This document shows positions 39,029-39,966 of a DNA stretch of 64,000 bases, in pieces. This DNA comes from Bacteroidaceae bacterium (GTDB lineage: Bacteria > Bacteroidota > Bacteroidia > Bacteroidales > Bacteroidaceae), in the NCBI GenBank assembly GCA_045645965.1, contig JAZRJU010000006.1, positions 2,422 through 66,421 of the forward strand, written 5' to 3'. Below the pieces are notes generated by a model, which was not told the origin of the DNA, searched no databases, and saw only the letters and a program-made list of their open reading frames with translations. Position numbers and translations under genes: made by a program. The stretch's first letter is position 1, and each line of letters opens with the position of its first letter.

Positions 39029-39036
39029 TATCTTTG
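39029..39036 (+). promoter_or_regulatory. -7 box TATCTTTG for the DUF3791/DUF3990 cassette
   Basis: About 36 nt upstream of the ATG at 39072. It lies inside the longer ORF-track reading, which argues for the shorter start. Confidence 0.6.
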
Positions 39037-39071
39037 CATGGAATTATCATCAAAGCAATAGCGATAATAGA

Positions 39072-39290
39072 ATGGGAAACAAATATCAAATTCCTTATAC
39101 CAATGCATGTATTCGGGCATTTGCAAAGCGCTTCAAACTCTCTGTTAAAATGGCGTTTGAATATTTGTATGCCTTCAAGGGAATAGACTTCCTTGTTGAG
39201 TTCTACGAAATAGAACACTTGCAATCCATAGAGGATGCCGTAGACGACCTGATAGTATGTTGTGCTAATAACGGAGGGACACTAAGATGA
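39072..39290 (+). CDS. DUF3791-like small helical protein (copy 1)
   Basis: 72 aa starting MGNKYQIPY. The FEYLYAFKGIDFLVEFYEIEHLQSIEDAVDDL pattern matches my memory of DUF3791. Confidence 0.68.
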   Translation: MGNKYQIPYTNACIRAFAKRFKLSVKMAFEYLYAFKGIDFLVEFYEIEHLQSIEDAVDDLIVCCANNGGTLR

Positions 39291-39757
39291 TATTGTATCA
39301 TGGAACAAACGTGGATTTTAAGGAAATAGACATTTCCAAATCCAATAAGTACAAGGATTTTGGTCAAGGTTTCTATCTTACCGACATCCGTATGCAGGCA
39401 GAGCAACTCGCCGTGAAGAAGGCAAGACTGTTCGGTGGATATCCCATCATACAAGAATACGAATTTGATGAATCTCTGCTCAACGCAAGCGATTTGAACG
39501 TTCTAAGGTTCGAGAGTCCATGCAAGGAGTGGGCAGAATTTGTATTTAACAACAGGAACAAGGCTATCAACTTCTCGCACGATTATGACATAGTTACAGG
39601 ACCTATTGCTAACGATGGAGTTGCTTATTTGTTGGGTCGCTACGAAGAAGGAACGCTCACCATTGACGACCTGACAAAGGAACTTACTTTCAAGGAACTT
39701 AACAACCAACTTTTCTTCGGTACGGAAGAAGCCATAAAACACCTCAGGAGATTATGA
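39287..39757 (+). CDS. DUF3990-like protein (candidate effector)
   Basis: 156 aa. MILYHGT, FGQGFYLTD, IIQEYEF. There are ATGA overlaps with both neighbours. Confidence 0.8.
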   Translation: MILYHGTNVDFKEIDISKSNKYKDFGQGFYLTDIRMQAEQLAVKKARLFGGYPIIQEYEFDESLLNASDLNVLRFESPCKEWAEFVFNNRNKAINFSHDYDIVTGPIANDGVAYLLGRYEEGTLTIDDLTKELTFKELNNQLFFGTEEAIKHLRRL

Positions 39758-39966
39758 TTACCACTGCTCAGAGAAACTTCCTGGTAAACCATGCTGTTGA
39801 CCAACTTACGGAGTTTGTTATAAAGGACTATGGCTCTGATTTGCCATCTGCCCTGAAAACAGTTTACGAATCCCAAGTATACAAATTGCTCCAAGATAGC
39901 GAGGGCGAACTTTACACGCAGAGTTCTTCCTATCTATATGAACTTTTGAAGCAGGAGATACAATAA
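39754..39966 (+). CDS. DUF3791-like small helical protein (copy 2)
   Basis: 70 aa, coupled by an ATGA overlap to the DUF3990 gene. Confidence 0.62.
   Translation: MITTAQRNFLVNHAVDQLTEFVIKDYGSDLPSALKTVYESQVYKLLQDSEGELYTQSSSYLYELLKQEIQ

Follow-up and report, generated by a model that had tools for sequence, protein, structure and literature searches.

The window analysed here is a stretch of 64,000 nucleotides from contig JAZRJU010000006.1 of a Bacteroidaceae bacterium (assembly GCA_045645965.1), and the element of interest within it is a cassette of three small open reading frames, ORF1 to ORF3, that lies between a gene for a beta-barrel protein and a gene with a type IX secretion system (T9SS) signal (Table 1). 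The reading frames are joined by ATGA stop/start overlaps at both junctions (39287-39290 and 39754-39757), and a promoter box of the Bacteroidota type, TATCTTTG, is situated 43 nt before the ORF1 ATG. Of 66 homologous Bacteroidota loci, 50 have a TAnnTTTG box in the 120 nt that precede ORF1, compared with 19/330 random 120-nt segments, and most of these boxes are 21-44 nt from the start codon; this conserved position favours the 72-residue start of ORF1 over that of a 95-residue ORF beginning at 39003. The promoter stretch (38990-39046) is unchanged in conspecific copies. The cassette has a G+C content of 0.37-0.43, against 0.52-0.59 in the flanks and in uvrA, and the gap between the beta-barrel gene and the CHU_C gene measures 1742 bp, with local direct and inverted repeats in its left ~750 bp. 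A first-pass annotation of this DNA had reported the overlapping reading frames, a promoter of their own, a higher AT content than the flanking genes and uvrA, and a repeat-filled gap between a beta-barrel and a T9SS gene, and each of these observations holds. ORF1, ORF2 and ORF3 form a single translationally coupled operon with its own promoter.

Table 1. Coordinates of the cassette, its neighbours and the local repeats (positions are those of the window).
Feature	Position	Strand	Remarks
ORF1	39072..39290	+	72 aa, DUF3791; small helical partner, presumed antitoxin/regulator
ORF2	39287..39757	+	156 aa, DUF3990; ART-fold enzyme, presumed toxin
ORF3	39754..39966	+	70 aa, without Pfam match, four-helix, PDC-M13C family; second partner
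-7 promoter box TATCTTTG	39029..39036	+	TAnnTTTG, Bacteroidota type; read from the sequence
OMP_b-brl_2 gene	37493-38281	minus	left neighbour
CHU_C/T9SS-signal gene	40024-40761		right neighbour
uvrA	starts 41090		beyond the CHU_C gene
Segment absent from related empty site	38305..39998	.	repeat debris and cassette
Local repeats upstream of cassette	38251..38932	.	not shown to be part of the module
32-nt direct repeat	38251-38282 / 38328-38359
Three 22-nt tandem-like copies	38506-38579
Repeats	38722-38817
Imperfect ~130-nt hairpin	38800-38932		CCACCCCCTCC arms

The arrangement is not a peculiarity of this locus. In a survey of 77 species-level genomes with a homologue, gathered by means of the DUF3990 profile, the triad of ~74, ~158 and ~74 residues is kept in 76/77, far above chance, and a DUF3791 homologue stands upstream of DUF3990 in 76/77 loci as well as in the window. 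The first and the second junction each show the 4-nt overlap in 64/77 genomes, and 55/77 have it at both. Furthermore, the neighbourhoods of three ORF3-family proteins, which were searched independently, contain the same triad in each case. All three genes are under purifying selection, with ratios of non-synonymous to synonymous differences per site (pN/pS) of 0.05-0.2 against conspecific copies (0.05-0.08 for ORF1), except for two ORF2 comparisons in which almost no synonymous differences are present (pN/pS of 1.03 for contig L092; pS of 0 for contig L009).

ORF2 matches the Pfam family DUF3990 (PF13151) over its full length, at 168 bits against a gathering threshold of 32.2 bits (E=1.6e-49, residues 1-154 on profile positions 1-151/152). 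The second Pfam match, to ART-PolyVal (PF18760; E=8.6e-5, residues 1-47), reaches 23.8 bits and is below the gathering threshold of 31.2; precomputed ART-PolyVal matches are also present in many close ORF2 homologues. An AlphaFold2 model of ORF2, built on 60 diverse homologues found among 1.8 billion representative proteins, has a predicted local distance difference test score (pLDDT) of 95.7 and a predicted template modelling score (pTM) of 0.89. When it was compared with the PDB by Foldseek, the top matches were all NAD-using proteins of the ADP-ribosyltransferase (ART) fold: the best is the RES toxin of Pseudomonas putida Xre-RES (9r35_A; E=5.5e-4, probability 1.0, TM-score 0.50-0.56), followed by ParT of ParST (6d0i, 6d0h) and then by PARP1, diphtheria toxin, exotoxin A, tankyrases and Arr. 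Among viral models, a DUF3990 homologue (E=5e-14) is followed by ART-PolyVal domains (E=7.7e-6 and weaker). The model presents ORF2 as an intact enzyme of the ART fold, with its split beta-sheet, predicted to bind NAD and equipped with a conserved H...Y...acidic set, and the resemblance to PARP- and diphtheria-type enzymes that the first-pass annotation had seen by eye in the middle protein is borne out by the matches to RES, ParT, PARP1 and diphtheria toxin. The ART-fold assignment of DUF3990 is itself not new, as the Pfam ART clan (CL0084) already includes this family. Its listing there is on record (PMC7955679). Scans of the cassette proteins against NCBIfam gave no match, and those against PHROGs gave weak matches only, to families of unknown function.

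The probable active site of ORF2 can be traced from residue conservation over 96 representative clusters, with denominators that vary by column. H5 (90/91), D24 (94/94), Y30 (94/94), W82 (96/96), N89 (89/95), R90 (95/95), D101 (91/94), D110 (86/93) and Q141 (83/86) are all strongly conserved. H5 is on strand 1 (HG[ST]) and Y30 on strand 2 (GxGxY), as in the diphtheria/PARP clade. The YHG[ST] and DFGxGFY motifs of the family, which contain H5 and Y30, are placed opposite H21/Y54 (diphtheria toxin) and H862/Y896 (PARP1) by hhalign comparisons of 2-4% probability that are otherwise non-significant, used hand-entered reference sequences and are unreliable in the C-terminal half. An H-Y-E triad of H5, Y30 and E57 had been proposed for this protein; the quoted motifs and residues are located correctly and the first two members of the triad are nearly invariant, but the third is not, since position 57 is E in just 28/96 clusters and otherwise V, I, A, S or K, while E59 is the majority residue at its own position (56/96). 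Both glutamates are on strand 3 (54-60) of the model, after the first helix, a place where the catalytic acid of the ART fold is not known to be located. D101 is preferred as the third residue because the conserved 'YDIV' that heads strand 102-105 resembles, by topology, the 'NEYIV' of PARP1 and the 'VEYI' of diphtheria toxin. As a best guess, the third catalytic residue is likelier to be D101, with D110 as the alternative, which would give an H-Y-D set instead of H-Y-E57. The E57 assignment is to be corrected before mutants are designed.

Of the two small partners, ORF1 is readily classified: it matches DUF3791 (PF12668) at 77.5 bits against a gathering threshold of 25 bits (E=7.7e-22), it matches no other Pfam family, and in the window it consists of DUF3791 only, without a helix-turn-helix (HTH) domain by Pfam. 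The cassette had been named DUF3791-DUF3990-DUF3791, and the first two of these assignments are correct, but ORF3 is not demonstrably a DUF3791 protein. It has no Pfam match at E<=0.1, its BLASTP comparison with ORF1 gives E=13, family-versus-family hhalign probabilities are 3-4.5%, and a DUF3791 Pfam scan of 40 ORF3-family members found sub-threshold matches in 5/40 (best E=0.013). With only weak sub-threshold hints from BLASTP, two hhalign runs and the Pfam scans, the idea that ORF3 is a DUF3791 paralogue was rejected. The ORF3 family comprises 1912 proteins, nearly all of them unnamed, and the AlphaFold2 model of ORF3 (pLDDT 89.5) consists of helices at residues 4-26, 30-38, 41-47 and 58-69. 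Profile searches of PDB sequences with ORF1 and with ORF3 returned nothing significant.

The three families are fused to one another in relatives of the cassette and therefore act together. Among the 150 best representative clusters, 15 have an ORF3-like domain attached C-terminally to DUF3990. Two plasmids, pBF9343 of Bacteroides fragilis and a mobilizable one of 7.6 kb from Phocaeicola vulgatus, encode upstream of DUF3990 a 149-residue protein that combines an N-terminal ORF3-like part (hidden Markov model E=2e-17) with a C-terminal DUF3791 (Pfam E=1e-18). The DUF3791 protein is also N-terminally extended in 12/77 loci, 11 of them with 139-145 residues and one (L064) with an ORF of 206 residues. 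In one locus (L037) Pfam recognises the extension as an Xre-type HTH (HTH_3 E=7e-14, together with DUF3791 E=8e-24), and the HTH-DUF3791 architecture is also found in two contexts that were reached from ORF3-family proteins (L104 and L108). Two other apparent fusions were not retained: P0250, considered as a DUF3791-DUF3990 fusion, was dropped as its N-terminal 85 residues are unrecognised by Pfam or the family HMM, and P0193, in which a Metallophos domain is linked to the last two-thirds of DUF3990, is probably an artefact of truncation or assembly. Contigs from mouse gut (L001-L003, 3058-5005) also have Metallophos genes, ~3 kb upstream of the triad.

By every criterion that the sequence allows to be applied, the cassette belongs to an uncharacterised system already in the catalogue, PDC-M13, and is in this sense genuine and credible without being novel. 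Families A, B and C of PDC-M13 in PADLOC are matched by ORF1 (E=8.6e-29), ORF2 (E=6.3e-49) and ORF3 (E=5.9e-15) respectively, and the three adjacent, co-oriented genes of the window fit the system definition, FAM_00109>>FAM_00403>>FAM_00080. The PDC systems are 145 candidates that were inferred from their embedding in BREX, DISARM and type I restriction-modification (RM) systems (bioRxiv 10.1101/2024.01.29.577857, Payne et al.), the PDC-M names being those of candidates with several genes. PDC-M13 is a three-family cassette that occurs in two circularly permuted orders, that of the window and that of Moraxella, and there is no structural difference between it and the cassette described here: they are the same system, although the window copy stands outside any defence system. 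A survey of the rumen reported 3324 PDC-M13 hits in 6530 genomes and found the system very abundant in Bacteroidales (PMC13356809). The statement in the first-pass annotation that the triad has no experimentally defined function still stands, as PDC-M13 is a prediction only. What is added to the catalogue entry here is a fold near RES and ParT, the correction of the triad, three kinds of fusion, the promoter, the empty site and the distribution on plasmids. ORF2 also matches PDC-M10A (E=1e-26) and PDC-M42A (E=5e-9) in PADLOC, and ORF3 weakly matches PDC-M10B; from these sequence matches, further catalogued candidate systems appear to be built on DUF3990-like enzymes.

Relatives of the cassette are present on 88 plasmids, 38 of which are conjugative or mobilizable, in hosts that include Bacteroides, Phocaeicola, Parabacteroides, Clostridium tetani and Moraxella. 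The module on pBF9343 (L101, NC_006873.1, 3555-5615) is a two-gene version, followed by an 86-residue ORF that overlaps a gene of the zeta-toxin family. Two putative toxin modules are thus adjacent on that plasmid, and the 86-residue gene is also found 3' of the module on the 7.6-kb P. vulgatus plasmid. On a Moraxella osloensis plasmid the order is permuted to DUF3990, ORF3-like, DUF3791, again with translational coupling, and the genes are flanked by hsdM on one side and by hsdS on the other, both from a type I RM system; one close homologue elsewhere adjoins HsdR, AAA_15/SMC_N, SNF2 and HNH genes. Meanwhile, only 7 of 50,697 phage records contain a relative. Across the 77 loci there is no conserved neighbour gene, the best family being found in 5/77, and the 139 immediate neighbours match 186 Pfam families, mostly housekeeping, with a minority related to defence or mobility (PDC-S01 three times, mad genes, DrmD, BrxH, AbiEi, type I S subunits and integrases). 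A survey of gene neighbourhoods had been suggested as a check on a link to defence islands or mobile elements: the contexts are not conserved, but the link with defence islands is modest.

The window itself records an insertion. In a related metagenomic contig (L093), the beta-barrel and CHU_C genes, which are 75% and 84% identical to their counterparts in the window, are ~97 bp apart, compared with 1695 bp here, and the 1.7-kb segment in the window is therefore an insertion. In conspecific contigs the cassette occupies this same position, and the extra ORFs on its left vary. The low G+C content likewise speaks for a mobile, accessory element. Together with the plasmid and RM-embedded copies, these comparisons establish that the three genes travel jointly, as one operon, among genomes, plasmids and RM operons.

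With somewhat better than even confidence, the cassette is read here as a mobile, self-contained and self-regulated toxin-antitoxin (TA) or abortive-infection module with an ART toxin, an instance of PDC-M13. ParT ADP-ribosylates a macromolecule and RES/MbcT degrades NAD+; in the proposed mechanism, ORF2 would likewise be a growth-arresting, NAD+-using toxin, whether by ADP-ribosylation of an essential macromolecule or by the destruction of NAD+. Its toxic potential is supported in that DUF3990 serves as the C-terminal module of type VI secretion system (T6SS) Rhs effectors, where the activity is itself predicted. ORF1, through DUF3791, and ORF3 would bind ORF2 and hold the enzyme inactive, and in relatives with an Xre-HTH-DUF3791 protein the complex would also repress its own promoter. 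The enzyme may be released when a phage infects, when an associated RM system is lost or inhibited, or when the element is lost, and once freed it would stop the cell, with abortive infection or stabilisation of the element as the outcome. The layout of an enzyme flanked by small partners had already been likened to TA and defence modules, and that view is now backed by the Xre-HTH fusions, the plasmid copies, the embedding in RM and the empty site.

Several observations weigh against the TA or abortive-infection reading. PDC-M13 is a prediction made by embedding only, one of 145 such candidates (bioRxiv 10.1101/2024.01.29.577857). The TM-scores of ORF2 to solved ARTs are just ~0.5, a profile search of PDB sequences with ORF2 found no significant relative, and the third catalytic residue may be either D101 or D110. 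The ORF3 model has no fold relative in the PDB by Foldseek (best E=1.6), and the fusion of this presumed antitoxin-like domain to the toxin is unusual for a classical type II TA system. ORF1 lacks a DNA-binding domain, so that autoregulation of this particular cassette is conjectural. Furthermore, the neighbours are overwhelmingly housekeeping genes, with ~10/139 that look defence-related (a raw count over the 77 genomes), and three contexts reached from ORF3-family proteins are purely core, so that the case for enrichment of the cassette in defence islands is weak.

Three other explanations were weighed. In the first, ORF2 would be a non-toxic NAD-dependent enzyme with accessory subunits, similar to Arr, which ADP-ribosylates small molecules (antibiotics), or to the RNA 2'-phosphotransferase Tpt1, with a role in resistance or repair instead of growth arrest. 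The conserved set of ORF2 resembles H-Y-D, which is the residue set of Arr-type enzymes, and there are weak partial fold matches to Arr-2 (9iba, E=0.7) and 1wfx (APE0204, E=0.48) as well as a fold match to a phage 'rifampin ADP-ribosyl transferase' (E=0.018); many copies of the cassette are also located among housekeeping genes. The best fold matches of ORF2, however, are the RES and ParT toxins rather than Arr or Tpt1, and DUF3990 is the domain that terminates T6SS Rhs toxins. Obligate coupling to two tiny partners, fusions to an HTH, patchy presence with an empty site, a plasmid copy beside a zeta-toxin module and a copy embedded in an RM operon are all at odds with a resistance or repair enzyme, which is consequently regarded as unlikely.

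The second explanation, considered quite unlikely, is that the cassette serves mobile elements as a module for counter-defence or for establishment, in which the ART modifies components of the host or its defences and the small proteins are adaptors or chaperones. ART-PolyVal domains have been proposed to act on such components, and ORF2 resembles them both in sequence, by the sub-threshold match (E=8.6e-5), and in fold, by the matches to phage ART-PolyVal domains (E=7.7e-6 and weaker); moreover, relatives are carried by conjugative plasmids such as pBF9343, near tra genes, and by a few phages (7 records). On the other side, the window copy and those of most of the 77 genomes are solo chromosomal inserts among core genes, without mobile-element genes, and phage carriage is rare (7/50,697 records). 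The cassette is equipped with a promoter and, in some relatives, with a repressor domain of the Xre type, and where it meets RM it is embedded within the host operon, not opposed to it. Finally, an orphan polymorphic-toxin/immunity cassette, in which ORF2 is a displaced C-terminal toxin of an Rhs or contact-dependent inhibition (CDI) protein and ORF3 its immunity protein, kept for recombination, would fit the occurrence of DUF3990 at the end of Rhs proteins ahead of a small predicted immunity gene and the position of ORF3 directly downstream of ORF2, but it is very improbable given that ORF2 opens exactly where its ART domain does, from a start codon coupled to ORF1 and without delivery or pre-toxin sequence, that no Rhs, T6SS or CDI genes lie nearby, that the upstream DUF3791 is conserved and sometimes bears an HTH, and that an ORF3-like domain is fused to the toxin in 15/150 clusters, which is unexpected for an immunity protein.

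Within the TA or abortive-infection reading, the closest parallels to the cassette are the RES-Xre, MbcTA and ParST systems, which provide the nearest solved folds to ORF2 (9r35, 6gw6, 6d0h, 6d0i). Like the cassette, these systems have a small, stand-alone ART-fold toxin and an upstream, overlapping antitoxin gene and occur on plasmids, and the Xre/MbcA antitoxins, like the HTH-DUF3791 proteins of cassette relatives, join an Xre-HTH to a domain on the toxin side. The C-terminal part of the Xre antitoxin plugs the NAD pocket of RES/MbcT (PMC6436930). The differences are nevertheless clear. ORF2 has no RES Pfam match (E<=0.1) and its similarity is at the level of fold only; the first active-site residue is the Arg of R-E-S in the one case and, in ORF2, a His (HG[ST], as in diphtheria toxin and PARP); and the partner domain is DUF3791, accompanied by a third, obligatory protein, ORF3, while the window ORF1 lacks the HTH. 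The cassette would work like RES-Xre and ParST but is not a member of these systems.

Other comparisons are more distant. ART-PolyVal (PF18760) is the nearest Pfam neighbour of ORF2 by sequence and the nearest named viral match by fold, but it is a domain of giant multi-domain proteins of phages and conjugative elements, whereas ORF2 is a stand-alone protein of 156 residues with two partners. DarTG, CmdTAC and the fused CapRel are conceptually similar, each having an ADP-ribosylating or growth-arresting toxin that is checked by its partner or partners and freed on phage infection. No match of the cassette to DarT, to the DarG macrodomain or to a SecB-like chaperone was found with Pfam, PADLOC or Foldseek against the PDB, and in contrast to these systems its partners are two helical proteins of ~70 residues. 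DUF3990 has also been described as the C-terminal domain of T6SS Rhs effectors, followed by a predicted immunity gene (PMC4524185, PMC10763514, PMC12165300). Serratia Rhs5 and Enterobacter RhsA share DUF3990 and a small downstream predicted immunity gene with the cassette (PMC4524185, PMC10763514), but in them the domain is the C-terminal module of a secreted protein, of predicted activity, whereas ORF2 is cytoplasmic and stands alone.

The surroundings of the cassette show further local variation. In two conspecific contigs, extra ORFs lie between the beta-barrel gene and the cassette (L004, 4633-6225; L005, 5221-6813), coding for a protein of 179 residues without Pfam match and one of 339 residues with a weak Lcl_C match; since such ORFs are present in some conspecifics at the locus that corresponds to window ~38360-38930, the space to the left of the cassette is a variable spot. 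The empty site of L093 holds one diverged copy of the 32-nt repeat (by eye), and the 26-nt core of this repeat, as well as CCACCCCCTCC, has exact copies only at 38251-38932 within the 64-kb window. To the right, the CHU_C/T9SS gene of L093 has its own TATCTTTG box ~40 nt before the ATG (L093 980-1055), which is replaced by the end of the cassette in the window. No terminator-like site is present on the plus strand between ORF3 and the CHU_C gene (39967-40023), and the cassette promoter may therefore now read through into the downstream gene for a T9SS substrate, to judge from the sequence.

Divergence from conspecific copies is uneven over the same region. Between the window and four conspecific contigs (L004, L009, L092 and L095), ORF2 has 97-99.6% nucleotide identity and a pS of 0-0.10, while ORF1 and ORF3 have just ~88% identity and a pS of 0.31-0.46. 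The differences in the cassette are restricted to two patches, ~39047-39212 and ~39780-39895, and in both of these the window alone deviates; the adjoining CHU_C gene has a pS of 0.17-0.20 against conspecific copies. This mosaic divergence suggests that short tracts of recombination or gene conversion may have exchanged partner alleles around an unchanged enzyme. Further out, the left flank (rpoZ, DUF4293 and the beta-barrel gene, 36500-38351) is 77-80% identical to contigs in which the start of uvrA (41076-41500) is 97% identical, and the cassette is 92-94% identical in contigs whose left flank shares just 77-80%. The sharp change in divergence at the beta-barrel gene is either a recombination boundary or the mark of a fast-evolving surface protein. 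At a distance from the cassette, a tRNA cluster on the minus strand (7183-7921) contains a duplicated Arg(ACG)-Val(TAC) pair that flanks Asp, Gly and Tyr tRNAs.

A fuller picture, less likely than not, can be drawn from these data. The cassette would be a previously uncharacterised, very widespread three-component ART toxin system, a structural sister of RES-Xre and ParST with a His-Tyr-Asp site, in which two distinct helical proteins of ~70 residues form a ternary complex with the enzyme. DUF3791 would be the repressor or antitoxin arm, and ORF3, which tolerates fusion to either neighbour, a sensor or a second lock. Roughly one in two Bacteroidales genomes from rumen and gut would thereby have a back-up by abortive infection, which would also guard type I RM systems.

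The window copy is a typical accessory insert between core genes and is already catalogued. A rate of ~0.5 PDC-M13 hits per rumen genome has been reported (PMC13356809), and pBF9343, a classic plasmid of B. fragilis, carries a module of the PDC-M13 type. If the ART toxin assignment is true, the cassette would be among the commonest multi-gene toxin or defence cassettes of gut and rumen Bacteroidales. The ADP-ribosylating TA toxins ParT, DarT and RES/MbcT have each disclosed a new cellular target, and a three-protein ART toxin with an unusual partner architecture, small enough for direct testing, could likewise disclose a new one.

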